IMG/VR virus record: IMGVR_UViG_2718217859_000011 | Span: 23,757-87,756 of that record | DNA: 64,000 nt | Direction: 5' to 3' (one strand) | From: a virus | Taxonomy: Duplodnaviria > Heunggongvirae > Uroviricota > Caudoviricetes | Part shown: piece by piece, positions 40,996 through 59,698 of the stretch | How the letters are laid out: each line of letters begins with the position of its first letter | Numbering within the stretch: the first letter of the stretch is position 1 | Notes under the pieces: model-generated | The model's database searches: none | The model's input: only the letters and a program-made list of their open reading frames with translations | Told to the model about the DNA's origin: nothing | Made by a program: the position numbers and the translations under genes

Positions 40996-41014
40996 ATCCT
41001 CACTTTACAACGGG

Positions 41015-41362
41015 TTATATGCGGATTCCAGCGCGTTCCGTTCGTTTCGGGTGCTTCCAGTTGATACCTTCAAGAAGCATGGATAACTGAGCCGGAGTAA
41101 GGTGCACCTTGCCGTCACGGGTGACTGGCCAGACGAAGCGGCCCCGCTCCAGGCGTTTGGTGAAGAGGCACAGTCCGTCACTGTCAGCCCACAACACTTT
41201 TATCTGGTCACCCCGGCGTCCGCGGAAGATGAACAGGTGTCCGGAGAACGGGTCATCCTTCAGGACGTTCTGAACTTTTGATGCCAGGCCGTTAAAGCCA
41301 TTTCGCATATCGGTGATACCTGCAACCAGCCAGATACGCGAACCTGCAGGGAGAGATATCAT
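41015..41362 (-). CDS. IS66-family TnpB (Orf2)
   Basis: 115 aa; typical size and sequence of IS66 Orf2. Confidence 0.8.
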   Translation of the reverse strand: MISLPAGSRIWLVAGITDMRNGFNGLASKVQNVLKDDPFSGHLFIFRGRRGDQIKVLWADSDGLCLFTKRLERGRFVWPVTRDGKVHLTPAQLSMLLEGINWKHPKRTERAGIRI

Positions 41363-42039
41363 CAGTGGCTGCTCCCTTTTATTTCGCGGATAAGTGTCTG
41401 TAATAACGCCGGCGTCAGTTTACCTTTAAGCCTGAGAGTTCCGGCCGGCAGAACCAGCTCACAACACAGACTGTCGGACGGTGTATTTATCTGCTCTGGT
41501 TCCTGTGCGGGGGCCGGGATTTTATTATCCGGCTCCGGCGTTAACGTCACGGGAAGCAGTGCCGGCATATTTTTTCCGGAAGGCAGCAGGCCACCTTTCC
41601 GGTATTGATGGCGCCAGTTGAAGAGCAGGTTATCGTTGATTCCGTTTTCCCGGGCGATCTGCGCCACACAGGCTCCGGGCTGCAGTGACTGCTCCACTAA
41701 GGCGATTTTAAACTCATAAGGGAAGTTGGGCCGCCGGGGACGTTTTTTTACCACGGGGGCTTCGGATATAACGGTGCTTTCAGGACGTACGACTGGTACC
41801 GTGGAAAATTGTCCGTAAAGGCAGGCATCAAGTTCCTGCTCCGACATGCCTGCGGGCAAAGGCCACGAAAGGCCAGCTCTCCGAAAGCGCACGAACATAC
41901 TACAAACTGTTGATTTTGGTACACCCAGGCGACGCCCGGCCACAACCCGGGGTAAATGTTCTTCAAAGTGAAGACGTAAAGCTTCAGTGATCCAGGTCCG
42001 GTGTTTCATACGATAGTGTCCATTAAAAATGATGGACAT
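41362..42039 (-). CDS. IS66-family accessory protein TnpA (Orf1)
   Basis: 225-aa ORF with ATGA overlap to tnpB; HTH-like N-terminal region. Confidence 0.55.
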   Translation of the reverse strand: MSIIFNGHYRMKHRTWITEALRLHFEEHLPRVVAGRRLGVPKSTVCSMFVRFRRAGLSWPLPAGMSEQELDACLYGQFSTVPVVRPESTVISEAPVVKKRPRRPNFPYEFKIALVEQSLQPGACVAQIARENGINDNLLFNWRHQYRKGGLLPSGKNMPALLPVTLTPEPDNKIPAPAQEPEQINTPSDSLCCELVLPAGTLRLKGKLTPALLQTLIREIKGSSH

Positions 42040-42092
42040 TATTTTTGTAGAGCCGGAGGAAACAGACCAGACGGTTTAAATGAGCCGGTTAC

Positions 42093-44905: not shown

Positions 44906-45558
44906 TGTGGGACAAGGTTAATCAGCGCATACAGCAGGCACTGGCCGCCGTTCGCCAGGCATTCAGGGTGGTGACCGGTACGGTGGACAGTTCGACCAAA
45001 GTACAGTTGCTTCAGCTGAACGGGCTGGCAGGCGAACAGCTGGACGGTGCGGAGTATTTTCAACATTACGGCCTCACCACATCCCCGCCGCCCGGCTCGA
45101 TGGGTATTGCCGTTCCGCTGAATGGTAATACCTCCCATACCGTCGTCGTGGCCACAGAGCACGGCGCATATCGCCTGACGGAATTGAAACCCGGGGAAGT
45201 GGCCCTGTATACCGACGAAGGCGCGAAAATTGTGCTGAAGCGCGGACGTGTGATTGAAACGGAGTGTGATATTTACCGGGTGAAATGTAATTCGTTTGAA
45301 GTTGAAGCAAAGGACAGCGCTGGTTTTATTACTCCCCAACTTACCGCAAGTGAGCAATTAATTGCTGAAGGGAAAATATCCGGTAATGGGGGTATGGCCA
45401 TTAAAGGCGGCAAAGGAAAATATACTGCCACCTTTGAAGGCAATATCAACCACACAAGCGGTGTGATTACCTCCGTTGACGTCACCATTAATGGCGTTAA
45501 AATCGGAACGCACAAACACCCGACCCCACACGGCATGTCTGACACGCCGGTTAATTAA
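44902..45558 (+). CDS. Baseplate assembly protein (Mu Q/gp45-like)
   Basis: 218 aa; synteny. Confidence 0.6.
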   Translation: MMWDKVNQRIQQALAAVRQAFRVVTGTVDSSTKVQLLQLNGLAGEQLDGAEYFQHYGLTTSPPPGSMGIAVPLNGNTSHTVVVATEHGAYRLTELKPGEVALYTDEGAKIVLKRGRVIETECDIYRVKCNSFEVEAKDSAGFITPQLTASEQLIAEGKISGNGGMAIKGGKGKYTATFEGNINHTSGVITSVDVTINGVKIGTHKHPTPHGMSDTPVN

Positions 45559-45611
45559 GTGCTGAACACCCTCACCTGATTCTGACCTGTCCATGCTGCC
45601 AGACTGGCGGC

Positions 45612-45962
45612 ATGGACCAGACGATTTCACCTGCAACCGGCGACTACGAACGCCGCCGGATTTATACACTCCATAACGCGGTTTATCTGCGACTGGCGAC
45701 ACCGCTTGGCAGTTACTGGGCGGATGCGTCGCTGGGGTCACGCCTGCACGAACTGAAGCGGGAAAAAGACGTTTCCCGTGTTCACAGGCTGGCGGCGCAG
45801 TATGCCAGCCAGGCACTTCAGCCCCTGCTTGATGACGGGCGGGCAAAATCCATTACCGTTGACACGAAAGCGGGCCAGCGAGGCTGGCTGTTGCTGTTAA
45901 TCACCGTCACGGATAACGCGGGCACACCGCAGACGTTTGAACACCCTGTGAGGATTATGTAA
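45612..45962 (+). CDS. Baseplate protein (Mu gp46-like)
   Basis: 116 aa; synteny. Confidence 0.5.
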   Translation: MDQTISPATGDYERRRIYTLHNAVYLRLATPLGSYWADASLGSRLHELKREKDVSRVHRLAAQYASQALQPLLDDGRAKSITVDTKAGQRGWLLLLITVTDNAGTPQTFEHPVRIM

Positions 45963-47041
45963 TGCCGTTTCCTGTTCCGGGCGTTGCTGAAAACACAGAA
46001 CGCCAGCTACGTGATATCGCTAACGCCCTGCCGGGAGAAACCATCGACACCGGCGCTGACAGCGATTACCGCATTCGTGCAAATGCCGTATCCGGCGTGG
46101 CGGACGGACTTTATATGCATCAGGGATGGATCCTCCGTCAGGTGTTTCCTGACACGGCAGACCCTGAATATCTGGAGCTGCACTGCCGTACGCGCAATGT
46201 TTTTCGTAAAAAAGCAACGGCCTCATCCGGTCCGGTAGTGATTACCGGCACACCCGGTAAGACGCTGCCAGCCGGTGCGGAAATTCGTGGTGAAGGTGTC
46301 AGCGTGGCCACCACAGCAGACTGCACCATCGGTGATGAAGGCAGCGCAGAGGTGACGGTAAAAAGCACCGCCACGGGTGTACAGACGAACGCATCCGCAA
46401 CGCAGACGGCAACGCTGGTCAGCCCGCCGGAAGGCATCAACAGCACGGTGACGATTAAATCCCTGACCGGTGGAACGGACAGGGAAAGTGACACCGACCT
46501 GCTGGCGCGTTATCTGGATATCCTGCGCAGGCCGCCCGCTGGCGGTAACAAATATGATTACAAACGCTGGGCGCTGGAAGTGGATGGCGTTACCTCAGCA
46601 TATGTGGAGCCGTTACGTCGTGGGTTGGGGACGGTTGATGTGGCCATTACGTCAGCCAATGACCTCCCTTCGCAGGAACTGATTAATGCCGTGCTGGCAC
46701 ATATTGAGGAAGTCCGCCCGGTCACAGCGAAGGACACAATGGTACTGGCCCCGACGAAAAAAGCCGTTGATTTCGTTGTTCGGGTAAAAACCAGCGGCCT
46801 GACCGTTGAGCAGATAAAACCGCAGATAACTGACGTTATCACGGATTTTATGAACCGGCTGGAGCCGGGGCAGGAATTAATAATTTCACAACTGGAAACC
46901 CAGATTTCATTAATTTCCGGTGTCAGTGACCGGCGAATCATTACGCCAGCAGACAACGTAAAAGCCATTATTAACGCGTCAACGTGGGAATGGCTGCGCC
47001 CGGGAAATATTGATATTCAGTCTTTTCCACGTGAGGGGTGA
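45962..47041 (+). CDS. Baseplate J-like protein (Mu gp47-like)
   Basis: 359 aa; synteny. Confidence 0.65.
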   Translation: MPFPVPGVAENTERQLRDIANALPGETIDTGADSDYRIRANAVSGVADGLYMHQGWILRQVFPDTADPEYLELHCRTRNVFRKKATASSGPVVITGTPGKTLPAGAEIRGEGVSVATTADCTIGDEGSAEVTVKSTATGVQTNASATQTATLVSPPEGINSTVTIKSLTGGTDRESDTDLLARYLDILRRPPAGGNKYDYKRWALEVDGVTSAYVEPLRRGLGTVDVAITSANDLPSQELINAVLAHIEEVRPVTAKDTMVLAPTKKAVDFVVRVKTSGLTVEQIKPQITDVITDFMNRLEPGQELIISQLETQISLISGVSDRRIITPADNVKAIINASTWEWLRPGNIDIQSFPREG

Positions 47042-47045
47042 TTTT

Positions 47046-47618
47046 ATGAATATGGTCGATTTATTTCGCGCCATGCTGCCACCTGTCAGTTATGACCTGA
47101 ACGGGAAATATATTTCCGCAGAACTGACAGCCGAGGCTGACGTCATGGAGGCCGTGAAGGCCTCAGCGGCGCGCGTTCTGGCACAAATCACCCCGTTGCA
47201 GGCATCGATGACGCTGTCCGACTGGGAGCGCGTGTACAGTGTTGTCCCCCGTGAAGAGGCAACACAACAGGAGCGGCGGCAGAACATTCTGGTAAAAATG
47301 GCAGCCACTGGCGGACTGTCAATCCCTTACTTTAAGAGCCTTGCCGCCAGTCTGGGCTATACCATCACCATTACGGAGCCGCGACCGTTCCGGGTGGGGA
47401 TAAACCGCTGCGGCGACCGTCTGCTGATACCGGAAATCCGCTGGGCGTGGCAGGTCAACGTTATCGGGACAAAAACACCGGTCTACCGGTTCAGAACGGG
47501 CGCATCGGCAACCGGCGAACCTCTGACGGCCTTTGGTGAATCCATTTTAGAAAACACGTTTAAAGACCTTAAACCGGCTTTTACAGACTGTTATTTTACG
47601 TATGAGGTGGAGGAATAA
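47046..47618 (+). CDS. Tail protein (Mu gp48-like)
   Basis: 190 aa; ATG at 47046. Confidence 0.55.
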   Translation: MNMVDLFRAMLPPVSYDLNGKYISAELTAEADVMEAVKASAARVLAQITPLQASMTLSDWERVYSVVPREEATQQERRQNILVKMAATGGLSIPYFKSLAASLGYTITITEPRPFRVGINRCGDRLLIPEIRWAWQVNVIGTKTPVYRFRTGASATGEPLTAFGESILENTFKDLKPAFTDCYFTYEVEE

Positions 47619-48421
47619 TGCAGAATTTAATGCCCCCGGTGAATACGCCGGATAAGTTATTTCATGATGGTGACCCGACTCAGGGAATTGAGGGAACCAT
47701 CGTTACTGCTGAATTTATGAATAATCATCAGGCAGCAACGCGTGATTTGCAGCAGGAGGTGATTAACGTCCTTAAAGAGGCTGGCGTCACCCCTGACCCG
47801 GAAAAACAAAACCAGCTGGTTGAGGCGCTGACCTCGTTTATTGGTCAGAAAGTCCCGGATGCATCGCTGACGCAAAAAGGCGTGGTGCAGCTTAACAGTG
47901 CTGTTAATAGTGAATCAGAAACAGAAGCTGCCACACCAAAAGCGGTCAAAATTGCGATAGATAACGCAAACGCCAGACTGGCAAAAGACCGTAACGGCGC
48001 AGACATCCCGAATAAACAGTTGTTTCTGGATAACATCAGCGGTGTGCCAAAAGCACGCAAGGTCAACGGTATGGCCCTGACTTCGGATATCACCATCAGC
48101 AGCATCAGCGGCAACGCCGGAACAGCAACCCGCCTTCAGAACGCCCGCAGAATCAACAATGTGCTGTTTGATGGCTCCAGCGATATCACAATCACCAGTA
48201 CCGATTCTGGTGCTGTGCGTAATTTCCAGTATACCAACGAGGTGTTTCATAATCCCGGCGGTGCTGAAATTACATGGACATTCCGGGCACCTTCCGGCTG
48301 TCAGTTGTCAGGCATTTATGTCCAGGAAACGGGAGATAATACAGCAGACAATATCGGTGGTGTGTATTACAAATCCGCGCAGATTTATATCAATGGCTCA
48401 TGGCGCACCGTATCCGGTTAA
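47618..48421 (+). CDS. Tail fibre protein (set 1)
   Basis: 267 aa; shares an ATPKAVK motif with the second fibre. Confidence 0.6.
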   Translation: MQNLMPPVNTPDKLFHDGDPTQGIEGTIVTAEFMNNHQAATRDLQQEVINVLKEAGVTPDPEKQNQLVEALTSFIGQKVPDASLTQKGVVQLNSAVNSESETEAATPKAVKIAIDNANARLAKDRNGADIPNKQLFLDNISGVPKARKVNGMALTSDITISSISGNAGTATRLQNARRINNVLFDGSSDITITSTDSGAVRNFQYTNEVFHNPGGAEITWTFRAPSGCQLSGIYVQETGDNTADNIGGVYYKSAQIYINGSWRTVSG

Positions 48422-48435
48422 TTAAGGAGAAAATA

Positions 48436-48960
48436 ATGGAACTCAGAAACGTCACGCGTTATTACCCGGAAGAAATGCCTTATGGTGAAAACATTCAGTA
48501 TTTCCGCAGTGAAGACGGACAGGATTTTTATGAATCACTGGATAAATTCACGAAGAAATACAAATTGTGTATTCACCCTGAAACCGGCGTGATTTATTCG
48601 ATGGCGGAAGACGTGTCCCGTCTTTATCCGGCTGGTTTCACTATTGTGGAAGTGGACGAACTGCCGGAGGGTTTTGGCATTGAAGCCTGCTGGTATTACC
48701 GGGATGGCGAAGTGCTGCCGGTTCCGGTTGATTATTCGCAACTGGCAGAAAAGCAACGCCAGCGTCTTCTGGCTGAAGCCAGGGACATCACCTCCGACTG
48801 GAAAACCGAGCTGGGACTGGGCACCATCAGCGACGATGACAAAGCCCGTCTTACGCAGTGGATGGCATATATCAAAGCGGTGAAGGCGCTGGATTTAAGC
48901 CTGGTCAGTGATAAATCTTCCTTTGATTTAATTCAGTGGCCGGAAAAACCTGACGTGTAA
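48436..48960 (+). CDS. Tail fibre assembly chaperone (set 1)
   Basis: 174 aa directly downstream of fibre 1. Confidence 0.65.
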   Translation: MELRNVTRYYPEEMPYGENIQYFRSEDGQDFYESLDKFTKKYKLCIHPETGVIYSMAEDVSRLYPAGFTIVEVDELPEGFGIEACWYYRDGEVLPVPVDYSQLAEKQRQRLLAEARDITSDWKTELGLGTISDDDKARLTQWMAYIKAVKALDLSLVSDKSSFDLIQWPEKPDV

Positions 48961-49008
48961 AACAGTAACGGTCGCTGTCTGGTGACCGTTTTCAGTTCAG
49001 AAGGCTTT

Positions 49009-51288
49009 ATGTCTGTATTAATTTCAGGAGCGCTGATTAATGGCGCTGGCATTCCGATGGCGGAATGCAAAATTTATTTAGATGCACTGGTTAATACCAG
49101 TGAAGTGGTTATTGAATCATTTGCGGTTATTGAAACCGATGCGGCGGGACAGTATGCCTTTGAAGCACAAAAAGGCAAATACACCGTACACATCAAACAA
49201 AAGAACGGCCCTAAGTGCTGTGTGGGTGATATTTCGGTTTACGATGACTCAAAGCCCGGCACACTGAATGATTTTCTGACCGCGCTGGATGAAGGCGACC
49301 TCAAGCCCGACGTGGTGAAACGCTTTGAGGAAATGGTGGCGCAGGCGCAGCAGAGCGCGGAAGCAGCAGCGGAAAGCGAGCGACAGGCCGGGCAACATGT
49401 CGCTGATGCGCAGAAGATAAAGGAAGACTGCGAGACGCTGGCGGATAACGTACAGCAGAATGCAGAAGCCGTTGCCGAAGACAAAAATCAGGTGGCGTTG
49501 CTGGCGTCATCTGCCACACAGGATGCAGCCCGCGCAGAGCAGGCTGTCAAGGATGCCGACACGATAGTCCGGAAAGCGGTCGATAAACTTGCTGATGCTG
49601 CAACGCTGACCGGCGAGGCAAAAGCCAGTGCCGGAGCTGCCGCACAAAGCGAACAGAATGCGGAAAATCACGCTGATAATGCAGCACAAAGCGCACAGCA
49701 GACCGCGCAGGATGTGCAGGCAACGGTCACAGCCCGCAGTGATGCGGAACGTTTTGCGGGTGAGGCAGAAAACAGCGCACAGTCATCAGGCACAGCGCGG
49801 GACGAATCAGTCGATGCCGCCGAACGCGCCCGCCTTTATCATAATACCGCATCATCAGCAGCGACCAGTTCAGGACTGTCGGCAAATGCGGCGCTGGGGT
49901 ACAAAAACAGCGCCGCTGAATACGCCCGACAGGCTAAAGCCAGCCAGGATGCAGGTGCAGACAATGCGCAGGAAGCGAAACAGTACAGGGATGAGGCACA
50001 GCAGATAGTTGATGACCTGAATGCAACAAATGCCAGCACGACAGAAAAAGGTCTGGTGCAACTCTGTAGTGATACGGACAACGACAGCGAGGAACTGGCT
50101 GCCACGCCAAAGGCTGTCAAAGACGTCATGGACGAGACGAAAACAAAAGCGCCACTGGACAGCCCGGCCTTCACCGGCACCCCAACCACCCCAACCCCAC
50201 CGGATGATGCCGCCGGTCTGGAAGCAGCGAACGCAGCGTTTGTGCGCAAACTGCTTGCTGCGCTGGTTGGCTCATCGCCGGAAGTTCTGGACACCCTGAA
50301 CGAGCTGGCAGCGGCGCTGGGCAATGACCCGAACTTTGCGACGACAATCACAAACGCGCTGGCAGGCAAACAACCGCTTAATGACGTCTTAACGGCAATC
50401 AGCGCACTGACGCAACGGGCAGATAATCTTCTGTACTTCAATACAGACGGGAATGCCTCACTGTCTCTGCTGTCAGAGAAGGGCCGCGCATTACTGGCGC
50501 ATGACACGGCTGAAGCCATGCGCACGGAGCTTGAGCTGAGCGCGTCTGCGACGATGGAACCCCAGAGTGATATCCGTGACCGCACACCGGGCAGGCTGGC
50601 CCTGTCCGGGATGTATGGGTTTGGACAGGCATTCACCAGCGCCGAAGCTCTGTCATTTAACGGACAGGCTGATTTCGTTGAGTGGTTGAAGAAAGTCACG
50701 CCGGGGCGGTATGCGGTCAGTATTGCGGACTCCTCCACGCTGCTGGTGGGCACCACGAAATTTAACGGTATCATTGATGTGATGTGGTCACCCTCTGATA
50801 ACAATGGTTCAGACTCAGCGCGTAAATTCAAAACGCTGCTGTACTACAACCAGTATTACGAGGATGAGCACAGCATACATTGTATGCGTTATCGCTACAG
50901 TGGTAACAGCTGGAATGCAACATCAAGCCTTATTGTGTATGACGGCAACTCCCTGGCATATCTGATGTCCTCAACCGCCGGTAATGGTCCGTTCTCATAT
51001 TACCAATACCCGGCCGTCGGTGTGCCGATTATGGCGGTATATCAGGGAGAAAGTTTTGGTGAAAATGCTTCTCTGGGACTCGGTGATACTGTGCCGGGTT
51101 CCCGTCTTGGTCCTCTGGCCATGAGTGCACAGGTTAGTGATACAGGGACATACGCATCCTCACCGCAGGTTGTGATTGGCGGTGCCGGTGAATACAACTT
51201 CCCCGGTCGTTACAAGGCGCTTTCGGGCCTGGGTAACAATTATGGTACTCAGCGTGGCTTTATCGGTCTTTTTGTACGCATTGAGTAA
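49009..51288 (+). CDS. Long side tail fibre protein (set 2)
   Basis: 759 aa; Ala/Gln-rich repeats, ATPKAVKDVMDE motif, C-terminal variable domain. Confidence 0.7.
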   Translation: MSVLISGALINGAGIPMAECKIYLDALVNTSEVVIESFAVIETDAAGQYAFEAQKGKYTVHIKQKNGPKCCVGDISVYDDSKPGTLNDFLTALDEGDLKPDVVKRFEEMVAQAQQSAEAAAESERQAGQHVADAQKIKEDCETLADNVQQNAEAVAEDKNQVALLASSATQDAARAEQAVKDADTIVRKAVDKLADAATLTGEAKASAGAAAQSEQNAENHADNAAQSAQQTAQDVQATVTARSDAERFAGEAENSAQSSGTARDESVDAAERARLYHNTASSAATSSGLSANAALGYKNSAAEYARQAKASQDAGADNAQEAKQYRDEAQQIVDDLNATNASTTEKGLVQLCSDTDNDSEELAATPKAVKDVMDETKTKAPLDSPAFTGTPTTPTPPDDAAGLEAANAAFVRKLLAALVGSSPEVLDTLNELAAALGNDPNFATTITNALAGKQPLNDVLTAISALTQRADNLLYFNTDGNASLSLLSEKGRALLAHDTAEAMRTELELSASATMEPQSDIRDRTPGRLALSGMYGFGQAFTSAEALSFNGQADFVEWLKKVTPGRYAVSIADSSTLLVGTTKFNGIIDVMWSPSDNNGSDSARKFKTLLYYNQYYEDEHSIHCMRYRYSGNSWNATSSLIVYDGNSLAYLMSSTAGNGPFSYYQYPAVGVPIMAVYQGESFGENASLGLGDTVPGSRLGPLAMSAQVSDTGTYASSPQVVIGGAGEYNFPGRYKALSGLGNNYGTQRGFIGLFVRIE

Positions 51289-51302
51289 TGAGGAAATCAG
51301 GC

Positions 51303-51881
51303 ATGAAAATCAGAGCGGTGAAAGGCATCAGAAACGCACATTATCTTGAAAATGGTGCGGTTGACTGCGAGGTGTTATTTGAAGGTGAAACGGAGTTTGC
51401 CCTGTATACCGCCATACAGGATGACACGGCCCCGACAGGCCAGCACATCTGGCAGGAGCTGCAAAGCGGGAAATGGGGCGAAATCGCCCCGTTCACTGTC
51501 ACGCCTGAACTTATTGCAGCGGCAAAGGATGCCAAAAGGCGGGAAATTGAGGCATGGCGCGACAGTCAGGAAAACGTTGAGTTTATTTTCACGTTTGATG
51601 GCCGTCGTTTTGATGGCGGAAAAACCTCGCAGTCACGCCTTGCCCCCGTGGTTGCAACAGCACAGGCCGGACTGCTTCCGGATGGTTTTTTCTGGACTGA
51701 TGCGGATAATAACAACGTCGTACTGACCAGGGAGAAACTTATTGCGCTGAACGATGCCATGATGGTGGCCATGGTGGCGGAGGGCTTTAAAATCCACGAA
51801 CGTCAGCGGAAGATGAAAGAGGAACTGAGTAGCCTGGAGGATTTACGCTCAATCAGAGCGATGGCGATTAGTGGTAATTAG
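51303..51881 (+). CDS. Tail fibre assembly chaperone (set 2)
   Basis: 192 aa directly downstream of fibre 2. Confidence 0.65.
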   Translation: MKIRAVKGIRNAHYLENGAVDCEVLFEGETEFALYTAIQDDTAPTGQHIWQELQSGKWGEIAPFTVTPELIAAAKDAKRREIEAWRDSQENVEFIFTFDGRRFDGGKTSQSRLAPVVATAQAGLLPDGFFWTDADNNNVVLTREKLIALNDAMMVAMVAEGFKIHERQRKMKEELSSLEDLRSIRAMAISGN

Positions 51882-51962
51882 CGGTCAATTCTGGGCTTTT
51901 GGGTTGCGCGCTCCCCGCCCGGAATTGCGCGTCAATTAGCCCAGAAAAAAACGCGAAGTTAC
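51880..51962. repeat. Mu-like right end with inverted copies of the end repeats
   Basis: gcccagaaaaaaacgc and cgcccggaattg are reverse complements of left-end motifs (gcgcttttttctgggcg, caattctgggcg). Confidence 0.5.
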
Positions 51963-52202
51963 ACTTGAGTTACCTTTTTCACCTTTCCGGGTGACTTTTT
52001 TTACCAGCCCAGACTCACAAAGGGCCGCAATATGATTCATCACAGAACGTTTGCTAATCTCGCACTGGTCAGCAATATGCTGGTAGCTGGGCCAGCACTC
52101 CCCCTGATCGCTGGCATTATCAGCCAGCTTGATCAGAACCAGTTTTCGCAATGGATTACCCACTCGAATTTTCATCGCTTTAACCATCAGCTCCATACTC
52201 AT
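51936..52202 (-). pseudogene. 5' fragment of lambdoid O-like replication initiator gene (N-terminal HTH domain), truncated by the Mu-like insertion
   Basis: 88-aa ORF whose last 9 codons are encoded by the Mu-like right end; joins in frame with 12368-12951. Confidence 0.6.
51963..51967. repeat. Target-site duplication ACTTG (right copy) of the Mu-like insertion
   Basis: Matches 12947-12951. Confidence 0.6.
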
Positions 52203-52423
52203 GCTGCACCTCCGAGATGCTTCATGTTTTTTCCGGAGCGAAAGGCTATAAGCGGCATACTGACGCGGTAATTACGGCCCAGCGGTTCACAAATCACCTT
52301 CTGACATTCACGGTCAACCAGGCTAACACGTAGAACATGCCCTGCTGGCGTGGTGTACCACTGACCGGGGAGAGGACAACGGAAAGTCTGATTGGTAAAT
52401 CGTTTGAAAATATTCCGGATCAT
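52199..52423 (-). CDS. Hypothetical protein (74 aa)
   Basis: ATGA overlap with the downstream gene. Confidence 0.4.
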   Translation of the reverse strand: MIRNIFKRFTNQTFRCPLPGQWYTTPAGHVLRVSLVDRECQKVICEPLGRNYRVSMPLIAFRSGKNMKHLGGAA

Positions 52424-53571
52424 TTACGCCCCCTTACCTCTGAAGAGTTCAGCGACGAATGAATAAGACGGGCAAGAAATGCCGCATCGTTAATTCGGTC
52501 ATACAGACTTACAGCCAGCGGTGATTCAGCTTTTTCCAGCATGGGATAAAGCTGCTGCAACCAGACCTGATGAATTGATGAAATGTAGGAATAGAGTACG
52601 CTGGCGTTATGTGCAACGTCGCTCGGTACAGCGGGCTTTGAAAGCTGTTTCTCCATCTGGTTAAAGGCATTGATGTATGCCTCTTTGAACTGGGCAGCAC
52701 GTTTACCCGTGAAACCCATAGCAAGAAACGCAAAACCGTCGCGGGTTATTTGATAGCAAGGTAGTTTGCGGCCTGTGCAATCGGTGTAATCACTCACCGA
52801 AAAATTGCGGGCAGTGAATGATGCGGAGCATTCAAGCGTGCGGATCTTTTTCAGTACATCGTCATGACGTTTGGAGAAGAAGTTGGCAACAGCCAGGGAT
52901 GAAGTAACAGCCTGACCATCAACGATGGCAATTTCAGGTTGAGTGAGGGTTGGGATCGTAGCCATGATGGCAGCCTCTTTGGTGATTTTTAATAACTCAC
53001 CACCAAGGCTTTCCACGACCTTATTGGTGGTGAGACGTACAGGGGTGGAAATACCGGTCACCAAAGAACCCGGCCCAACCGAAGTTGGCCCTGCACGCCC
53101 CACCATAATTTGGGCGTAATGCTGCTCATGACACAAAAAAACCGCAAGAGCGCGGTTGTGCGCTTTGGTGAATTCCGGGTTTCCACGCCCGGCACCCGCT
53201 TTATAAGGTGCCTGAACAGTGTAACGTCCCGGAATGGCAGAATCAATGTGCTGGTGGTCCTTCACACTCAACAAAATCACGCCTGAATTTCCACAAAGGG
53301 CTAAAGCACTCATGCGGGTAGTCTTTGCGAAGATAGATAACGCGCTGTGTTTCTGGCTCCCAACGAATAACATGAACATAAAGTCCTCTTCCGTCACGAA
53401 ACCAGCGGTTAAGTTCCTGCACAACTCGCCCCCCACAGTCAGGTAAAGTTCTCTGTGGTTACTTACAGCCAGGAGATTTGGTAATCTGCATTCATGCCGT
53501 AACAACAGGTGTTCAGCGACGCTGACCACCAGCTGTTGCGACAAATGGTTATTTGCCGTTAAACTGTTCAT
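52420..53571 (-). CDS. Rha-family regulatory protein (Rha domain from the ATG at 52965; the N-terminal 200 codons of the open frame are of uncertain status)
   Basis: C-terminal 181 aa MATIPTLTQPEIAIVDGQAVTSSLAVANFFSKRHDDVLKKI resembles the Rha family; AAGAGG RBS before 52965. Confidence 0.5.
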   Translation of the reverse strand: MNSLTANNHLSQQLVVSVAEHLLLRHECRLPNLLAVSNHRELYLTVGGELCRNLTAGFVTEEDFMFMLFVGSQKHSALSIFAKTTRMSALALCGNSGVILLSVKDHQHIDSAIPGRYTVQAPYKAGAGRGNPEFTKAHNRALAVFLCHEQHYAQIMVGRAGPTSVGPGSLVTGISTPVRLTTNKVVESLGGELLKITKEAAIMATIPTLTQPEIAIVDGQAVTSSLAVANFFSKRHDDVLKKIRTLECSASFTARNFSVSDYTDCTGRKLPCYQITRDGFAFLAMGFTGKRAAQFKEAYINAFNQMEKQLSKPAVPSDVAHNASVLYSYISSIHQVWLQQLYPMLEKAESPLAVSLYDRINDAAFLARLIHSSLNSSEVRGRK

Positions 53572-54131
53572 GCGTTAGTTTCTCCACAGATACAAAACGC
53601 CACGACGCCCGGAGCTGCACACTCGCGGGCGTCACTCTTTTCTGGAGCGCAAAAGATTTTGTAGACCAGTGCTGCATGCTCCTGGAGCTTCGAAATTGAC
53701 AGATACAACTCATCATTAATTGCTGTCTGCTCGTGTGGCTCCACTACCCCATCTTCGATTGCCGAACGAATCTGCTTTGAGTAACTCCCGATCTGTTCGA
53801 TGACTTCCAGCAGGCGCTGGTTTATATCGGCGTTCTCTACTTCCTCAATTTCAGGAAGCGATACAAACACCCCACCAGCAGACTGTGCGACAGCATCCGC
53901 AATGTAGTGAGTGCCAGCCGCGCGCTGTAAAATCATTGCCCATCCCAGCGGGAAAATCTGATCGCCATCTGCACGAAGGCGGTTGAATAAAGCGTTCTCT
54001 GTTACATCCAGCCACTCAGCAGCTTCAGAGTAACCCCCCGGCAACGCCGCGATAGTTTTTCTGACAGCTTTCACGTACCACTCAGGCTGTTTTTCTACTT
54101 TCCAGTGATGCTTACCCACGGTTAGCCTCAT
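53568..54131 (-). CDS. Hypothetical regulatory protein in the cII position
   Basis: 187 aa directly downstream of the Cro-like gene; assignment by position only. Confidence 0.4.
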   Translation of the reverse strand: MRLTVGKHHWKVEKQPEWYVKAVRKTIAALPGGYSEAAEWLDVTENALFNRLRADGDQIFPLGWAMILQRAAGTHYIADAVAQSAGGVFVSLPEIEEVENADINQRLLEVIEQIGSYSKQIRSAIEDGVVEPHEQTAINDELYLSISKLQEHAALVYKIFCAPEKSDARECAAPGVVAFCICGETNA

Positions 54132-54162
54132 CGTTCTGTGGTTAAAAATTAAAGGTGTTCTG

Positions 54163-54363
54163 TTAATCTTTCGGATAGATATCCGGTCTTAAGTCAGATT
54201 TCGTAATTGCACCTGACGTGCATTGCTCAAGTTTTTTAGCCAGCACAAAACTGGCTTTTTTATAACCATTGAAAACCAGCCGTAAGTAGCCTGGTGTTGA
54301 GCCAACTTTTCCGGCCAACTCGCCCTGCTGTTCTTTGGTTAAAGAGTCCCAATACGCTTTCAT
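54163..54363 (-). CDS. Cro-like repressor (Cro/CI-type HTH)
   Basis: 66 aa from MKAYWDSLTKEQQGELAGKVGSTPGYLRLVFNGYKK; divergent from the CI-like gene. Confidence 0.6.
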   Translation of the reverse strand: MKAYWDSLTKEQQGELAGKVGSTPGYLRLVFNGYKKASFVLAKKLEQCTSGAITKSDLRPDIYPKD

Positions 54364-54366
54364 ACA

Positions 54367-54437
54367 ATATGTATCTCTTATATACATATTACATGATTGA
54401 AATGAACCTTCAAGATACTTGTACCCTATCGGTACAA
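54367..54437. promoter_or_regulatory. Immunity-region operator/promoter segment with two palindromes
   Basis: ATATGTAT-n7-ATACATAT (54367-54389) and TTGTACC-ctatc-GGTACAA (54419-54437) between the divergent Cro-like and CI-like genes. Confidence 0.4.
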
Positions 54438-54453
54438 AGGTTTTAATTTCGTT

Positions 54454-55128
54454 ATGAAAACAGTCCATGACATCCGGCGGTCTAACGCCAGAAAACTGAG
54501 AGATGGTGTTGGCGGGAATTCTTCCTTTGCCACCATGATTGATCGCGAACCAACCCAGACCAGCAGGTTTATGGGAGATGGTGCTACTAAAAATATCGGT
54601 GACAGCATGGCACGGCACATCGAAAAATGTTTCGACCTGCCTGTCGGATGGCTTGATCAAGAACACCAGACAACGAACATCACAAAAAAACCTGATGTTT
54701 CAATCACTAATAAACAAATAACGTTAGTCCCTGTCATATCATGGGTACAGGCCGGAGCATGGAAAGAAGTTGGCTATTCTGAGGTTGATTTGAGCACAAC
54801 AGAAACATATCCCTGCCCTGTACCCTGTGGCGAAATGACTTATATATTGAGGGTGATTGGTGATTCAATGATTGATGAGTACCGTCCGGGGGACATGATT
54901 TTTGTCGATCCAGAAGTACCAGCCTGCCACGGTGATGACGTTATTGCATTGATGCACGATACAGGTGAAACCACCTTCAAAAGGTTGATAGAAGACGGGA
55001 CACAGCGTTATCTCAAAGCATTAAACCCCAACTGGCCTGAGCCTTACATTAAGATAAACGGTAATTGCTCTATCATTGGTACAGTTATTTTCTCAGGAAA
55101 ACCAAGAAGATACAAAATTAAAGCCTGA
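54454..55128 (+). CDS. CI-like repressor (N-terminal HTH, C-terminal LexA/S24-type peptidase domain)
   Basis: 224 aa; C-terminal region with Ser...Lys-type self-cleavage domain pattern (RVIGDSMIDEY...KRL). Confidence 0.7.
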   Translation: MKTVHDIRRSNARKLRDGVGGNSSFATMIDREPTQTSRFMGDGATKNIGDSMARHIEKCFDLPVGWLDQEHQTTNITKKPDVSITNKQITLVPVISWVQAGAWKEVGYSEVDLSTTETYPCPVPCGEMTYILRVIGDSMIDEYRPGDMIFVDPEVPACHGDDVIALMHDTGETTFKRLIEDGTQRYLKALNPNWPEPYIKINGNCSIIGTVIFSGKPRRYKIKA

Positions 55129-55140
55129 TCAATGTCTATG

Positions 55141-55166
55141 AACCTGCTTCGGCAGGTTTTTTTATA
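55141..55166 (+). terminator. Rho-independent terminator after the CI-like gene
   Basis: aacctgc-ttcg-gcaggtt hairpin followed by ttttttt. Confidence 0.6.
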
Positions 55167-55323
55167 CTTGACAATGTACCATTAAGATACATAATGTACC
55201 TGCATAAGATATCGAACAGGCAGGACGCCCACGAAGTAGCCGTCCGGGGCATACGAAGACCGGAATGATTCGTAAATAAAAAAGCGCCCAAGTGGACGCT
55301 TCACTTTTGAACTGGATTTATAA

Positions 55324-55533
55324 TCAATTATTTTCTTCATAAATGTTTTGTAATGTATTTATGAGATTTGGTATTTCTTTTATGGGAAAAGAATATATTG
55401 GACTTTCGATAATTTTATCAGATTCAAATGGTGGTTGTTTGCAGGACAGTTGAACTATAACTGAATTATGATCTTTAACTGGCACACAGTACCAACCACA
55501 TACATCAAAAACAGGAGTATTTTGATTATCCAT
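55324..55533 (-). CDS. Small AT-rich protein (69 aa) adjacent to the immunity region
   Basis: ATG at 55533 with GAGG RBS; very AT-rich gene and flanks. Confidence 0.4.
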   Translation of the reverse strand: MDNQNTPVFDVCGWYCVPVKDHNSVIVQLSCKQPPFESDKIIESPIYSFPIKEIPNLINTLQNIYEENN

Positions 55534-55799
55534 TATGTCCTCGACAACTAAAAACACTGCGTACAAACCTCAAAAGCAGGGAGTTATTTATAAAATTTCA
55601 TAAAGAATAATTACTGATAGCGACAATTCATTGTTCTTGAATTTTGAAAAATAGCAAGACAAAACAATGTAAACTTATTTAAGAAAACTTCTTATTATGT
55701 AAACAAAACAACCAATTCGTTATATAGGAAAAACAAATAGTACGCAAGAAAATATTCAACAGGGGTATTACATTCAACCATAAGAGTAATCGTCTCTTT

Positions 55800-56377
55800 G
55801 GTAACTAATACCGAACATTTTATTGTAACACGTCGTATGGCACATGCGTCGTTAGCGGTCTGGGGACGTTAAAGGGGACAATCCACTCCTTGCTCGGGCA
55901 AACAAACCAGGTAGCCGGAATGTGCAAGTCAATGATGATGCTGATAAGACGCCTAACCAGCGTGGCGATCCGGTTTGACGCCTGGGAAGAGACCAGGGTG
56001 CAACGATGAGGGCATTTATGGAGCCGCGACAAAGTGTGGTGCCGTAACTGGCTAAGTGCTCTCAGCGTTGTGGTAATCCGCGAAATGGCGCGGCGGTAAG
56101 TATGGCGGGGTTACTCTTTCCCCGTTGAGGACACCGGATTGTCAGGTTGACCATACGCCTGAGTGACAACCCCACCACAACAGCCACTGCTTTGGCGGTA
56201 CCAGTTTGTACACTTGCTTCCGGCTGGTACCGCTCTTTTTACAAAACAGAGAAGAGCATCACCGGACGACGGGCTCATAACCCAATCCATCCGGGCGGCT
56301 GCCACCGCAGGTGTTCTTCTCTGTTTTGTGGAGAAACCAACCGACCTTGCAGGGTCGATATGATGAGGAGCAGCAAA
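55800..56377 (+). other. ORF-poor, structured leader region upstream of the early operon
   Basis: About 580 bp without a convincing ORF on either strand; several long inverted repeats. Confidence 0.35.
56196..56240 (+). terminator. Strong hairpin with U-tract inside the leader (candidate terminator/attenuator with boxA-like CGCTCTTTTTA)
   Basis: gcggtaccag...ctggtaccgc 10-bp stem followed by tcttttta. Confidence 0.45.
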
Positions 56378-56614
56378 ATGGCTAGCGAACGCAGTACTGA
56401 TGTGCAGGCATTTATCGGGGAGCTGGACGGCGGCGTATTTGAAACCAAAATCGGCGCAGTTCTCAGTGAAGTCGCTTCCGGTGTGATGAACACGAAAACC
56501 AAAGGTAAGGTCTCACTCAACCTGGAAATCGAACCATTTGATGAGAACCGTGTGAAAATCAAACACAAACTCTCATATGTTCGCCCGACTAACCGCGGGA
56601 AAATTTCCGAATAA
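56378..56614 (+). CDS. Hypothetical early protein (78 aa); frame continues past an in-frame TAA to 56740
   Basis: GAGGAG RBS before ATG 56378; in-frame TAA at 56612-56614 followed by 41 further sense codons. Confidence 0.45.
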   Translation: MASERSTDVQAFIGELDGGVFETKIGAVLSEVASGVMNTKTKGKVSLNLEIEPFDENRVKIKHKLSYVRPTNRGKISE

Positions 56615-56805
56615 GACACCACCGAAACGCCGATGTATGTCAATCTCGGTGGTCGCCTGACTATTCTGCAGGAAGACCAGGGACAATTACTGACTCTTGC
56701 CGGTGAACCTGACGGAAAACTACGCGCAGCAGGTCATTAATATCGTTCTTAATTAACTGATTATTTATCTCATCACTGAATATCTTTATATAGTGAGGAC
56801 TTATT

Positions 56806-57630
56806 ATGTCTCAGAACTTAGACGCAACCGCAATTAATCAAATCCATGCCCTTATTTCTGCTCAGGGTGTTAATGAAATTATCAGTAAGATTGGTGCCGA
56901 TGCTGTGGCATTGCCTGAGAATTTCCGCATTCATGATCTGGAAAAATTTAATTTAAATCGCTTCCGTTTCCGTGGTGCGCTTTCCACTGCCAGCATCGAT
57001 GACTTTACCCGTTATTCTAAAGATCTTGCAGATGAAGGCACCCGCTGCTTTATCGATGCCGATAATATGCGTGCCGTCAGTGTGCTTAACCTGGGTACTA
57101 TTGATGAACCAGGTCACGCAGATAACACCGCCACTCTCAAACTGAAAAAGACAGCGCCGTTCTCTGCTCTGTTGTCTGTTAATGGCGAGCGTAACTTCCA
57201 GAAGTCACTGGCAGAATGGATTGAAGACTGGGCCGACTACCTTGTGGGCTTTGATGCTAATGGTGACGCCATTCAGGCAACAAAAGCAGCTGCGGCAGTC
57301 CGTAAAATCACAATTGAAGCAAACCAGACCGCTGATTTTGAAGACAATGACTTCAGCGGCAAACGCTCTCTGATGGAGTCTGTCGAAGCGAAGACCAAAG
57401 ACATTATGCCAGTGGCATTTGAATTTAAATGCGTTCCGTTTGAAGGTCTGAAAGAACGTCCGTTTAAATTACGCCTCAGCATTATCACTGGCGATCGTCC
57501 TGTACTGGTTCTGCGCATTATTCAGCTGGAAGCGGTGCAGGAAGAAATGGCTAACGAATTTCGTGATCTGCTTGTTGAGAAATTCAAAGACAGCAAAGTA
57601 GAAACCTTTATTGGTACTTTCACCGCCTGA
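56806..57630 (+). CDS. YfdQ-like prophage protein (DUF2303-type)
   Basis: 274 aa; recalled resemblance to CPS-53 YfdQ (unverified). Confidence 0.5.
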
Positions 57631-57757
57631 TTTCATTACTGCAAATGCCCCTGCGGGGGCATTTATGGAAACGTAATTAACTCAATAATCGCCTGAAGGC
57701 GAGGGTTTTCTTTAACCAAAATTCAGAGCGGTGCAGCGCATATACGTGGAGAACAAA

Positions 57758-58294
57758 ATGTCATTTATTAAAACTTTTTCCGGGAAGCATTTTTATTATG
57801 ACAAGATAAATAAAGACGACATCGTGATTAACGATATCGCGGTTTCCCTTTCAAATATCTGCCGCTTTGCCGGTCATCTTTCTCACTTCTACAGTGTCGC
57901 CCAACATGCGGTGCTTTGCAGCCAGCTGGTGCCGCAGGAATTTGCTTTTGAAGCGTTAATGCATGATGCAACAGAAGCGTATTGCCAGGACATTCCCGCA
58001 CCACTGAAACGCCTTCTTCCTGACTATAAACGGATGGAAGAAAAAATAGACGCCGTAATCCGTGAGAAATACGGGTTACCCCCAGTTATGAGTACACCCG
58101 TGAAATATGCCGATCTCATCATGCTGGCAACCGAACGCCGCGATCTCGGGCTTGATGATGGCTCTTTCTGGCCTGTACTGGAAGGCATCCCGGCAACAGA
58201 GATGTTCAACGTGATTCCACTGGCACCGGGCCATGCCTACGGGATGTTTATGGAACGCTTCAACGAGTTATCGGAATTACGCAAATGTGCATAA
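57758..58294 (+). CDS. HD-domain phosphohydrolase (YfdR-like)
   Basis: ATG at 57758; HD motif region (HLSHFYSVAQHAV, EALMHDATEAY). Confidence 0.55.
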   Translation: MSFIKTFSGKHFYYDKINKDDIVINDIAVSLSNICRFAGHLSHFYSVAQHAVLCSQLVPQEFAFEALMHDATEAYCQDIPAPLKRLLPDYKRMEEKIDAVIREKYGLPPVMSTPVKYADLIMLATERRDLGLDDGSFWPVLEGIPATEMFNVIPLAPGHAYGMFMERFNELSELRKCA

Positions 58295-59163: not shown

Positions 59164-59507
59164 CAACCGAAATTAACTACCATGCACTGCTTGAGCGCGC
59201 ACGGAATAAAGTGCAGAGCATTGAGTTCGCCTTAACACAGAGTGCATTCGCTGAGATTCGCGCTGAGCTTGAAAATGATTTAGAACTGGCACGGATTGCA
59301 CTGGCATCTCTGGAAGTTGAGCCAGATGAACGCGCAGCCTATGAATTATTTATGGAAAAGCGTTTCGGTAAAACAGTCGATCGTCGGAGAGCAAAAAACG
59401 GTGATAACGAGTACATGGCGTGGGATATGGCTCTCGGCTGGGTCGTCTGGCAACAACGCGCTGGCATGAGTCTTTCAACTGCACAACCACAGGAGGGTCA
59501 ACAATGA
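59160..59507 (+). CDS. Hypothetical protein (115 aa)
   Basis: ATGA overlap with neighbours. Confidence 0.4.
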   Translation: MTTEINYHALLERARNKVQSIEFALTQSAFAEIRAELENDLELARIALASLEVEPDERAAYELFMEKRFGKTVDRRRAKNGDNEYMAWDMALGWVVWQQRAGMSLSTAQPQEGQQ

Positions 59508-59698
59508 ACAACTTAATGACAACAAAACAAGTCGCCGAATTCTGTGGCGTTTCAATATCGACGGTGCTTCGCTGGAACAGCGTAAACCGGAGAACTGGCC
59601 AGAAGTACAGGCCTGATTTTCCAGATCCTGATATTAAATCATGCCCAAATAAATGGGCATCACGCAAGATTTACAGGTTTGCAGGAGTTATTGAATGA
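59504..59698 (+). CDS. AlpA/Xis-family DNA-binding protein (excisionase-like)
   Basis: 64 aa; MTTKQVAEFCGVSISTVLRW HTH typical of AlpA/TorI/Xis. Confidence 0.6.
   Translation: MNNLMTTKQVAEFCGVSISTVLRWNSVNRRTGQKYRPDFPDPDIKSCPNKWASRKIYRFAGVIE

Follow-up and report, generated by a model that had tools for sequence, protein, structure and literature searches.

Two tandem tail-fibre and chaperone sets in a putatively replaceable cassette at the right end of a Mu-like Escherichia coli prophage

The prophage and its ends

Positions 12952-51963 of the window (the whole 64-kb stretch of DNA that was analysed) are occupied by a Mu-like transposable E. coli prophage with TG...CA ends (Table 1). A MuA-type transposase and a MuB-like AAA ATPase are encoded beside the repressor/Ner region at the left end, and the remainder of the element includes genes for Mor, a DNA-circularisation protein, gp36, gp37 and the tail sheath. 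The tape-measure gene is split by an IS66-family element, which renders the window copy defective, while the prophage of strain OkiPb01701 is 99% identical to it. A search of 5,426 complete E. coli genomes places the left end of this lineage in 48, at many differing loci. Among the sequenced phage isolates in the collection the nearest transposase is that of Pseudomonas phage VW-6B (50% identical), and a megablast search of these isolates with 24 kb of backbone revealed no close DNA relative, just a 165-bp patch. Since no sequenced isolate there has a transposase more than 50% identical to its own, the lineage falls outside the genus of Mu.

Table 1. Coordinates of the prophage features discussed in the text (positions in the window)
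Feature	Position	Strand	Evidence and remarks
Target duplication, left copy	12948-12951		CTTG, 4 bp
attL, left end	12952-13110	+	Begins 5'-TGTGGGG; three direct TTCTGGGC-containing repeats at 12969, 13043 and 13094
CI-type repressor	13264-13926	-	Left-end region
MuA-type DDE transposase	14316-16358		PF02316, PF09299, rve
AAA_22/TniB-like ATPase	16377-17270		Adjoins the transposase
Tail sheath	35063-36484		Virion type: Mu-type contractile tail
gp47, baseplate wedge (Baseplate_J)	45962-47041	+	PF04865, 228 bits; 32.7% identical to Mu gp47; conserved backbone
gp48, baseplate wedge (YmfQ family)	47046-47618	+	PF10076, 106 bits
Fibre 1, Mu S-type baseplate fibre	47618-48421	+	267 aa; PF03406; PDB 5yvq (Mu S), E = 3e-25
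Putative replaceable host-range cassette	47758-51873	+	Between the conserved fibre-1 N-terminus and attR
Tfa1, Mu U/U'-type assembly chaperone	48436-48960	+	PF02413 (Caudo_TAP), 75.5 bits
Fibre 2, side-tail-fibre type	49009-51288	+	759 aa; PF08400, 168 bits (cut-off 26.6), plus PF03406
Fibre 2, N-terminal collar domain	49009-49287		Residues 1-93
DUF4376 protein, last prophage gene	51303-51881	+	PF14301, 68.1 bits (cut-off 25), residues 78-182; phrog_1141
attR, right end	51882-51963	+	82 non-coding bases; terminal ...GTTACA; three end-repeat copies
Target duplication, right copy	51964-51967		CTTG, 4 bp

The attL junction was fixed by comparing independent insertions. The terminus at position 51963 (...GCGAAGTTACA) was deduced from the uninterrupted target, GATATTACTTGAGTTACC, found in phage cdtI, and from an alignment to two independent insertions of this phage, in which agreement ends precisely at that A. 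The original prediction had the last gene ending about 80 bp from the terminus, which is accurate (82 bp), but placed the terminus itself at 51962. The same terminus and a target duplication occur at a lambdoid O gene (the window copy), fliH, chbG, eutC, a prophage capsid gene and ypdF, and these six insertions have identical ends with the duplications CTTG, ATTG, CGCT, CACT, ACTT and CGCT. A duplication of 4 bp fits all six independent insertions, while that of Mu is 5 bp; 4 bp is also the length given by the depositors of LC727895 for a further Mu-like phage of E. coli. A 5-bp, Mu-style duplication, with the prophage ending at 51962, was also considered; it fits four of the insertions and is contradicted by a mismatch in each of the other two, OkiPb01701 (G versus A) and Ec55 (C versus A).

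The end repeats of attR are located at 51889-51896 (plus strand), at 51939-51946 (minus strand) and, in the imperfect form TTCCGGGC, near 51918-51925 (minus strand), and they look like transposase-binding sites. The motif occurs seven times in the window (2.4 expected), with five of the seven copies within the two ends. The TG...CA termini, the repeated end sites and the short duplications at unrelated loci are those of a Mu-like phage. OkiPb01701 and RM9088 have exactly this attR sequence, and relatives carrying other cassettes share 78-94% identity with it; the terminal 82-90 bp with their end repeats are conserved and, in at least seven insertions at differing loci, immediately follow the final gene, whichever that is. 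As this terminus is shared by independent insertions, the right end is natural rather than truncated, and annotators of prophages should not read the missing gin and mom as truncation.

Fibre genes and the absence of an inversion switch

Four co-oriented genes follow the baseplate gene gp48, coding for a short fibre, a U-like chaperone, a long fibre and a DUF4376 protein. Their start codons were taken from the RefSeq annotation of the OkiPb01701 prophage, and the gaps between them measure 14, 48 and 14 nt, the last lying between the fibre 2 stop codon and the DUF4376 gene. No matches were obtained for the four proteins in an NCBIfam scan. Fibre 1 is 38.7% identical to residues 12-196 of Mu S (tblastn, E = 3e-27), with similarity at its C-terminus to the short tail fibre of phiTE (9cuy, E = 3e-14); approximately 46 N-terminal codons belong to the conserved backbone, while the remainder is variable. 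Tfa1 is related to Mu U' (31% identity; tblastn, E = 3e-25) and to Mu U (PDB 5yvq_B, E = 2e-15). In Mu, gp48 is the fibre-docking protein, with the N-terminus of gp49 anchored on a gp48 loop in the cryo-EM structure (PMC11915804).

Residues 1-93 of fibre 2 match the collar domain of Ur-lambda Stf (PDB 9e7m, E = 3.5e-17) and the collar spike of the Vibrio myophage XM1 (7kjk, E = 6e-7). The collar assignment uses these sequence matches to solved structures and not the single-sequence AlphaFold2 model of the collar region (130 aa), which is poor (mean pLDDT 47). The middle of the gene (49214-50573) shares 86% DNA identity with stf of the lambdoid phage Rac-SA53, and the distal part, from approximately 49330 onwards, varies among relatives. 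The lambdoid look that the original prediction had attributed to this long fibre is thus real, and the domain analysis for which it called distinguishes a Mu S-type fibre 1 (PF03406) from an Stf-type fibre 2 (PF08400). Members of the DUF4376 family are intermolecular fibre chaperones by experiment (PMC7289586, PMC10579305, PMC7882524), and the need of the upstream fibre for its DUF4376 chaperone has been demonstrated for V22 gp27 and for the CJIE1 H-fibre partner (PMC7289586, PMC7882524). By analogy, the DUF4376 protein is the putative chaperone of fibre 2, so that the two co-oriented fibre/chaperone pairs in tandem described in the original prediction are indeed found, with the DUF4376 protein as the second chaperone.

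All four genes are intact, with dN/dS values of 0.08-0.37 (0.11 for fibre 1, 0.08 for Tfa1, 0.11-0.37 for fibre 2 and 0.11-0.18 for its collar domain), as expected under purifying selection, and both sets appear to be maintained. A promoter scan of the fibre region gave promoter-like sites no more often than chance and no clear signal between the two sets, while a scan for terminator-like sequences gave 15 weak matches where seven were expected, including one shortly inside fibre 2 (49049).

No homologues of Mu Gin, Com or Mom are encoded in the window. When these proteins were compared by tblastn with all six frames of the 64 kb, no match was better than E = 0.2 (best values: Gin 1.2, Com 0.22, Mom 1.1), while the same queries recovered Mom at 95% identity in the prophage of strain 06-00048, which served as positive control. 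Open reading frames in alternative frames within 47618-51963 gave no Pfam match, and none of the open reading frames there has an invertase match in Pfam. Beyond the last gene there are only the 82 non-coding bp with their repeats, leaving no room for an invertase or a Mom-type gene, as had been anticipated. The absence of an invertible G segment was likewise foreseen: the best match in the window to the first 26 bases of the 34-bp repeat of Mu has nine mismatches, the core AAACCnnGGTTT is absent from the window, and the longest inverted repeats between 45000 and 53000 (28 nt, 71-75% complementarity) do not flank the fibre genes. In the Gin/G-segment switches of Mu, P1 (cin) and e14 (pin) there are a serine invertase, gix-type sites and an inverted second set sharing one constant N-terminus; here both sets lie on the plus strand and fibre 2 has a complete N-terminal domain of its own.

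The cassette in relatives and comparable phages

Relatives with the same backbone differ in the contents of the right end. Megablast identity with the prophage inserted in eutC of the enteropathogenic strain E2348/69, whose backbone shares 85-97% DNA identity with the window element between the left end and approximately codon 46 of fibre 1, stops at 47757, and similarity in attR restarts at 51874-51878 in B1172, M8 and JNE21-009. With the backbone match lost after 47757 and regained from 51874, and with alternative contents on the same backbone, the stretch between these mosaic boundaries appears to be a swappable cassette. The tandem dual set occurs on this backbone in OkiPb01701, RM9088 and M8, and also in B1172, where the Stf-type fibre has a different distal end and the DUF4376 gene is missing. 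The cassette of JNE21-009 codes for a fibre, a Tfa and an unrelated 351-aa protein, and those of Ec55 and SCAID WND1-2021 for a single long fibre. The E2348/69 prophage has the same attR as the window element and a 4-bp duplication, but its cassette resembles a G segment (fibre, Tfa, inverted Tfa', inverted fibre C-terminus) without an Stf-type fibre, and its gin gene is truncated to 31 codons (77% identical to Mu Gin, approximately 45 bp from attR). Fibre 2 is absent altogether from some same-backbone relatives and is therefore dispensable.

Two tracts, 48112-48944 (89%) and 49519-51826 (97.4%), are common to the window element and a different Mu-like prophage, that of strain 06-00048, and cover only the distal fibre parts and the chaperones. 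The latter prophage has kept com and a Mom 95% identical to that of Mu, without gin. Together with the identity breaks, these tracts agree with the earlier suggestion of recombination-derived host-range modules. The lineage's stretch from the fibre N-terminus to the transposase-binding end would act as a plug-in slot for receptor-binding modules and, for phage engineering, would offer a slot with natural recombination boundaries, in which the Stf collar may be a portable fibre anchor.

The comparison with Mu, D108 and SfMu that had been proposed holds in part. As in these phages, the fibres follow gp48, the N-terminus of fibre 1 resembles that of Mu S, Tfa1 resembles U/U', and the aim would be two receptor specificities. 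The right end is, however, not SfMu-like: SfMu retains the G segment, gin and mom (PMC4406740), and where these phages have an S-U-U'-S' G segment followed by gin, com and mom, the window element has no invertase, gix site, inverted set, com or mom. The second set of Mu shares the constant S N-terminus, unlike fibre 2 with its own Stf-type N-terminus. The Sp18-type Mu-like phages of Shiga toxin-producing E. coli (for example Mu_JNE122137 in LC727895), which are frequently inserted in lambdoid or Stx prophages (PMC10132054), are transposable like the window phage, but their transposase is just 44% identical. The Gin homologue of the Sp18-type element shares 75% identity with that of Mu and accompanies a Tfa/fibre set in inverted orientation, and a Com-like gene is present as well. 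The invertible G segment of Mu is not a fixed trait among the transposable phages of E. coli.

The closest parallels in gene order are integrase-based, unlike the window phage. In the Stx2e phage phiP27 (NC_003356) the same four genes occur in the same order and orientation as L54-L57 behind a Mu-type baseplate with gp47 and gp48 homologues (tblastn identities of 31-75% across the annotated module L52-L57), and Actinobacillus phage vB_Apl-pPE4 has the same order in gp67-gp70, also behind a Mu-type baseplate. In both, the module is followed by the prophage end, the collar region (first 150 residues) is 75-77% identical to that of the window element, and the DUF4376 proteins are 53-56% identical (56% for phiP27 L57); the baseplate proteins, by contrast, reach just 25-27% identity where a match is detectable at all, and the fibres are unlike in their distal parts. 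The Stf-type fibre is thus an established partner of Mu-type tail modules rather than a one-off lambdoid capture. The phiP27 paper reportedly dates from 2002, and the four-gene order, already in the phiP27 record for years, gains a further example in the window element. Nothing here overturns current understanding, tail-fibre mosaicism being a familiar theme.

Display of the two fibres and rival explanations

It is probable that the locus represents the natural and functional right end of a transposable Mu-like lineage, with a replaceable two-fibre/two-chaperone cassette in place of a Gin-inverted G segment. Fibre 1 would dock on gp48 through its Mu S-type N-terminus and be folded by the U-type chaperone, while fibre 2, with its lambda Stf-type collar domain, would be folded by the DUF4376 chaperone. 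The four genes are presumably co-transcribed from the late tail operon, in which case both fibres would be made in every lytic cycle and displayed together. Host range would then differ between lineages through homologous recombination, not within a clone through inversion, and the DNA exchanged by this recombination may be either the distal portions of the fibres together with their chaperones or everything from the conserved N-terminus to the 82-bp end.

In lambda, twelve StfN domains form a collar around the gpV/gpM rings (PMC12617516), and in the myophage XM1 the N-terminal domain of gp40 binds the neck (PMC10457771). Fibre 2 shares with these proteins a beta-sandwich collar domain of approximately 93 residues followed by a long coiled-coil region, but lambda Stf has a lambda-type Tfa as its downstream neighbour and belongs to a non-contractile tail, and XM1 gp40 is encoded apart from the baseplate genes, whereas fibre 2 has a DUF4376 partner and lies within a Mu-type tail module. 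By analogy, the collar domains of fibre 2 would most likely be arranged in a ring that encircles one of the hexameric rings exposed on the virion, and in a contractile-tailed phage the neck, as in XM1, is the likeliest site. A more tentative reading, possible but held with less than even confidence, is that one backbone alternates between a Mu-style invertible segment, decayed in E2348/69, and constitutive display of two fibres, with the Stf collar mounted off the baseplate, probably at the neck. If this were true, the Stf collar would be a portable, backbone-independent adaptor for siphophage and myophage tails.

The collar partners in lambda are tail-tube and tail-tip proteins, which in a myophage lie beneath the sheath, and this counts against the incorporation of fibre 2 into a contractile-tailed virion.

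That the right end is instead a deletion remnant, in which a decaying prophage lost an ancestral G segment, gin and mom to leave a defective end, is highly improbable. Truncation of gin does occur in the lineage (E2348/69), and the window copy is itself defective through the IS66-family insertion, but a conserved 82-90 bp end at seven or more loci with target duplications requires transposition with exactly that end, the differing flanks contradict the descent of all copies from one insertion, and the intact cassette genes bear the mark of purifying selection. It is scarcely credible that inversion still switches host range in trans through a Pin/Gin-type invertase of the host or a co-resident element, given that this needs inverted crossover sites and that the window offers a best gix-like match with nine mismatches in 26 bases, no AAACCnnGGTTT core and weak inverted repeats, with both sets in the same orientation and complete with their own N-termini. 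Such invertases may nevertheless be at hand, as E. coli strains often have pin genes on their cryptic prophages (compare PMC12529663), and there are relatives with an inverted fibre set yet an incomplete gin.

The second fibre/chaperone pair could also be a passenger from a lambdoid prophage, expressed or silent, that forms no part of the Mu-like virion. The N-terminal domain is that of lambda Stf, whose partners in lambda itself are siphophage proteins (gpV and gpM), the middle of the fibre is close to the Rac-SA53 stf, the fibre is missing from same-backbone relatives, and collar identity (66-67% to phiP27 and pPE4, 34% to the 06-00048 phage) tracked none of sheath, tube, N, gp44-48, fibre 1 or Tfa when compared across five relatives. 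A passenger is nonetheless unlikely, as the order of S-type fibre, U-type Tfa, Stf-type fibre and DUF4376 protein recurs behind baseplates of Mu type, or of other contractile tails, in phiP27, pPE4, the 06-00048 phage and a prophage of Kosakonia, the collar domain has the low dN/dS given above, and a homologous domain anchors the collar spikes on the XM1 neck. In headful-packaging Mu-like phages, moreover, genome size leaves little space for 2.9 kb of ballast. Mounting of fibre 2 on fibre 1 or on its retained chaperone, as a branched baseplate fibre without an independent collar, is distinctly unlikely. In every example examined, an S-type fibre and U-type Tfa lie immediately ahead of the Stf-type fibre, Mu U remains bound at the fibre tip (PMC7882524, citing North et al.), and the lack of a link between collar identity and backbone proteins would suit such a branch. 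In the 06-00048 phage, however, identity to the window element is 82-92% for the C-terminus of fibre 1 and for Tfa against 34% for the collar, so that the collar does not co-vary with fibre 1 and Tfa, and both solved collars bind tail or neck rings rather than another fibre.

As context for these arrangements, a gp47 scan of genome contigs yielded 15 loci, 13 of which had enough downstream DNA to be read, a sample too small for statistics. A single fibre is encoded at ten of them, in some cases along with a recognisable Tfa; of the other three, one codes for Gin, another for Mom, and the third, in Kosakonia, for a second Stf-type N-terminus.

The Mu-like prophage and its right terminus

A transposable, Mu-like prophage occupies positions 12952 (5'-TGTGGGG...) to 51963 (...GCGAAGTTACA-3') of the window. 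It is classified as such from its MuA-type transposase, MuB-like ATPase, CI-type repressor, Mor, gp36, gp37 and DNA-circularisation protein. Among the sequenced phage isolates in the collection searched, none has a transposase more than 50% identical to that of this prophage, and the Mu transposase is absent among the 15 best matches listed. The tape-measure gene is split by an IS66-family element, and the copy in the window therefore probably cannot make tails.

Features of the Mu-like prophage and its flanks (window coordinates; start codons of the four fibre and chaperone genes are as annotated in RefSeq for a prophage 99% identical to this one)
Feature	Coordinates	Remarks
Target duplication copies	12948-12951 and 51964-51967	
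MuA-type transposase	14316-16358	Mu DNA-binding domain, rve core, Mu-transposase C-terminal domain
MuB-like AAA ATPase	16377-17270	
CI-type repressor		strand opposite to transposase and ATPase genes
Mor, DNA-circularisation protein, gp36, gp37		further Mu-like families
N6/N4 DNA methyltransferase	25095-25835	PF01555, 87 bits
IS66-family element	39394-42092	2,699 bp; 8-bp duplication; three minus-strand ORFs; HTH_Tnp_1, TnpB_IS66, DDE_Tnp_IS66
Baseplate gp47	45962-47041	right-hand gene
Baseplate gp48/YmfQ	47046-47618	right-hand gene
Fibre 1	47618-48421	first of four co-oriented genes after gp48
Tfa chaperone (Tfa1)	48436-48960	second
Fibre 2	49009-51288	third
DUF4376 protein	51303-51881	last
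Ash and Rha domain ORF	52420-53571	383 aa, minus strand

The window and the insertions in fliH (E. coli OkiPb01701) and chbG (E. coli RM9088) align identically through ...GTTACA, beyond which they are unrelated. To the right, the flanking DNA holds the first 79 codons of a lambdoid prophage's O-like replication gene, and the uninterrupted target, GATATTACTTGAGTTACC, occurs in phage cdtI. Given this shared boundary and intact target, the last gene stops 82 bp before the true end, in line with the original prediction that it lies close to the terminus. In the seven insertions examined, a conserved end of 82-90 bp directly follows whatever gene is last, and a target duplication surrounds the element in the six for which both junctions were read. 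Since these insertions lie at separate loci, transposition must have used exactly this end, and the right end is, on this comparison, natural and not truncated. Among 5,426 complete E. coli genomes, 48 contain the left end, inserted at a wide variety of positions.

A 4-bp duplication with TG...CA ends fits all six independent insertions (CTTG, ATTG, CGCT, CACT, ACTT and CGCT), while a 5-bp duplication, as in Mu, fails in two of them. Four of the six have an A immediately 5' of the left copy, and 4 bp are also annotated by the depositors of LC727895 for a Sp18-type Mu-like phage. Three copies of a TTCTGGGC-type repeat occur in the terminal 82 bp and three at the left end; a search of the window yielded seven occurrences of the motif (2.4 expected), five of them within the two ends. 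By their likeness to the R1-R3 sites of Mu, these repeats may represent transposase-binding sites.

The Mu-like phage is nested in a lambdoid prophage (1-12951 and 51964-64000) related to cdtI and Stx2c phages, with 95-96% identity across approximately half of the right flank, and splits its O-like replication gene after approximately codon 79. Mu-like phages within prophages are known from STEC (PMC10132054). The lambdoid prophage also encodes a protein which combines Ash and Rha domains.

Two fibre/chaperone sets without an inversion system

Fibre 1 (267 aa) shares 38.7% identity with residues 12-196 of Mu S and also matches the solved Mu S structure, and at its C-terminal tip it is similar to the phage phiTE short tail fibre. 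Tfa1 belongs to the Caudo_TAP family and is a homologue of Mu U and U'. Fibre 2 (759 aa) carries PF08400 (Pfam) at its N-terminus, and residues 1-93 can be aligned with the N-terminal domain of the side tail fibre of Ur-lambda (E = 3.5e-17) and, less strongly, with that of the collar spike gp40 of the Vibrio myophage XM1. Its middle part shows 86% DNA identity to the side tail fibre gene of the lambdoid phage Rac-SA53. DUF4376 proteins, the family to which the last gene product belongs, are required fibre chaperones in the Alteromonas phages V22 and A5 and the Campylobacter CJIE1 prophage (PMC7289586, PMC10579305, PMC7882524). These matches bear out the two co-oriented fibre/chaperone pairs and the lambdoid second fibre of the original prediction. 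The dN/dS values of all four genes against diverged relatives (0.08-0.37) indicate purifying selection.

The expected lack of gin, mom and an invertible segment was likewise observed. With Gin, Com and Mom of Mu (NC_000929) as queries against all six reading frames of the entire window, no homologue was found (best E = 1.2, 0.22 and 1.1, respectively); since these queries do retrieve Com and a 95% identical Mom from another prophage, and Gin from further prophages, the search is able to detect these proteins. No counterpart of the 34-bp gix repeat of Mu was found, its first 26 bases matching nowhere with fewer than nine mismatches; only short, weak inverted repeats occur in 45000-53000, and alternative-frame ORFs within the fibre region have no family match. 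The N6/N4 DNA methyltransferase gene, located between a DUF1804 gene and terL, upstream of the latter, is kept in relatives, and its product may stand in for the absent Mom against restriction.

Mu, D108 and SfMu (PMC4406740) carry S-U-U'-S' in an invertible segment together with gin, com and mom, as do Yersinia Mu-like phages (PMC10434027), and in the Sp18-type Mu-like phages of STEC an inverted fibre set occurs together with a Gin homologue, whereas the window prophage lacks these features and, by sequence, is not close to any of these phages. The four-gene order is shared with phiP27 (L54 fibre, L55 Tfa, L56 Stf-type fibre and L57 DUF4376-like), where it directly follows the Mu-type baseplate genes and adjoins the prophage end, and with vB_Apl-pPE4; the arrangement is thus already in databases, and no paper discussing its function was found. 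The window prophage belongs to a recurrent lineage whose fibre module is of a known type, rather than representing a new system.

A replaceable cassette and module exchange

Relative to the same-lineage prophage in eutC of E. coli E2348/69, the backbone DNA identity of 85-97% stops at 47757 (approximately codon 46 of fibre 1) and returns only at the right prophage end (attR), at 51874. Between these anchors, at least four kinds of content occur across the lineage. The tandem dual set, with three different fibre 2 distal ends, is found in the window and in strains OkiPb01701, RM9088, M8 and B1172 (the last without the DUF4376 gene), while JNE21-009 encodes fibre 1, Tfa and an unrelated 351-aa protein, and Ec55 and SCAID WND1-2021 a single long fibre. 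As same-lineage relatives lack it, fibre 2 is optional; the junction of fibre 1, Tfa and the fibre 2 N-terminus occurs in 22 complete genomes. The fourth kind, in E2348/69, is G-segment-like, with a fibre, Tfa, an inverted Tfa' and inverted fibre C-terminus (locus L031 33492-35971; NC_011601.1 2749191-2751670) and, approximately 45 bp from attR, a gin gene reduced to 31 codons with 77% identity to Mu Gin. Only one 14-nt inverted repeat was found here (L031 33784/35681), suggesting that this segment is probably frozen. In JNE21-009, a second, oppositely oriented Mu-type tail module (L007 10725-15486; DNA circularisation protein, tape measure, tube and sheath) lies immediately past the prophage right end, and two such elements thus abut.

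Strain 06-00048 harbours a Mu-like prophage of a different lineage, with a Mom 95% identical to that of Mu and a Com homologue; no Gin homologue was found in the 17.6-kb region read. It shares with the window the tracts 48112-48944 (fibre 1 C-terminus and Tfa; 89%) and 49519-51826 (distal fibre 2 and DUF4376; 97.4%), and the fibre N-termini are only 34-43% identical. As read from these alignments, this is the classical pattern in which host-range modules recombine and virion-attachment ends stay with the backbone. With the cassette swaps, these tracts support the recombination-derived host-range modules of the original prediction, which was real as a finding and right in its reading. Within a single assembly, the 06-00048 region occurs on both the chromosome (1812181-1829787) and the 136-kb plasmid record pCFSAN004178P_01 (97336-114932), with identical protein accessions save one frameshifted DUF4376 gene, which reflects either a second transposition event or a duplicate created by the assembly.

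Possible attachment of fibre 2

The dual set raises the question of the place of a lambda-type collar fibre on a contractile tail. A loop of gp48 is the docking site of the fibre N-terminus in Mu (PMC11915804), the gpV/gpM rings of Ur-lambda are surrounded by a collar of twelve Stf N-terminal domains (PMC12617516), and the homologous gp40 domain of XM1 attaches at the neck, to the connector and tail terminator (PMC10457771). Fibre 1 would take the six baseplate sites, and fibre 2 could encircle an exposed ring as a collar, with the neck as the most plausible place. Each burst would yield both, as products of the late tail operon, making an inversion switch unnecessary. The collar is 66-67% identical to the phiP27 and pPE4 domains, far above the identity of any tail protein, and shows low identity (34%) to that of the 06-00048 phage, a pattern which fits, without proving, a fairly generic ring-binding adaptor.
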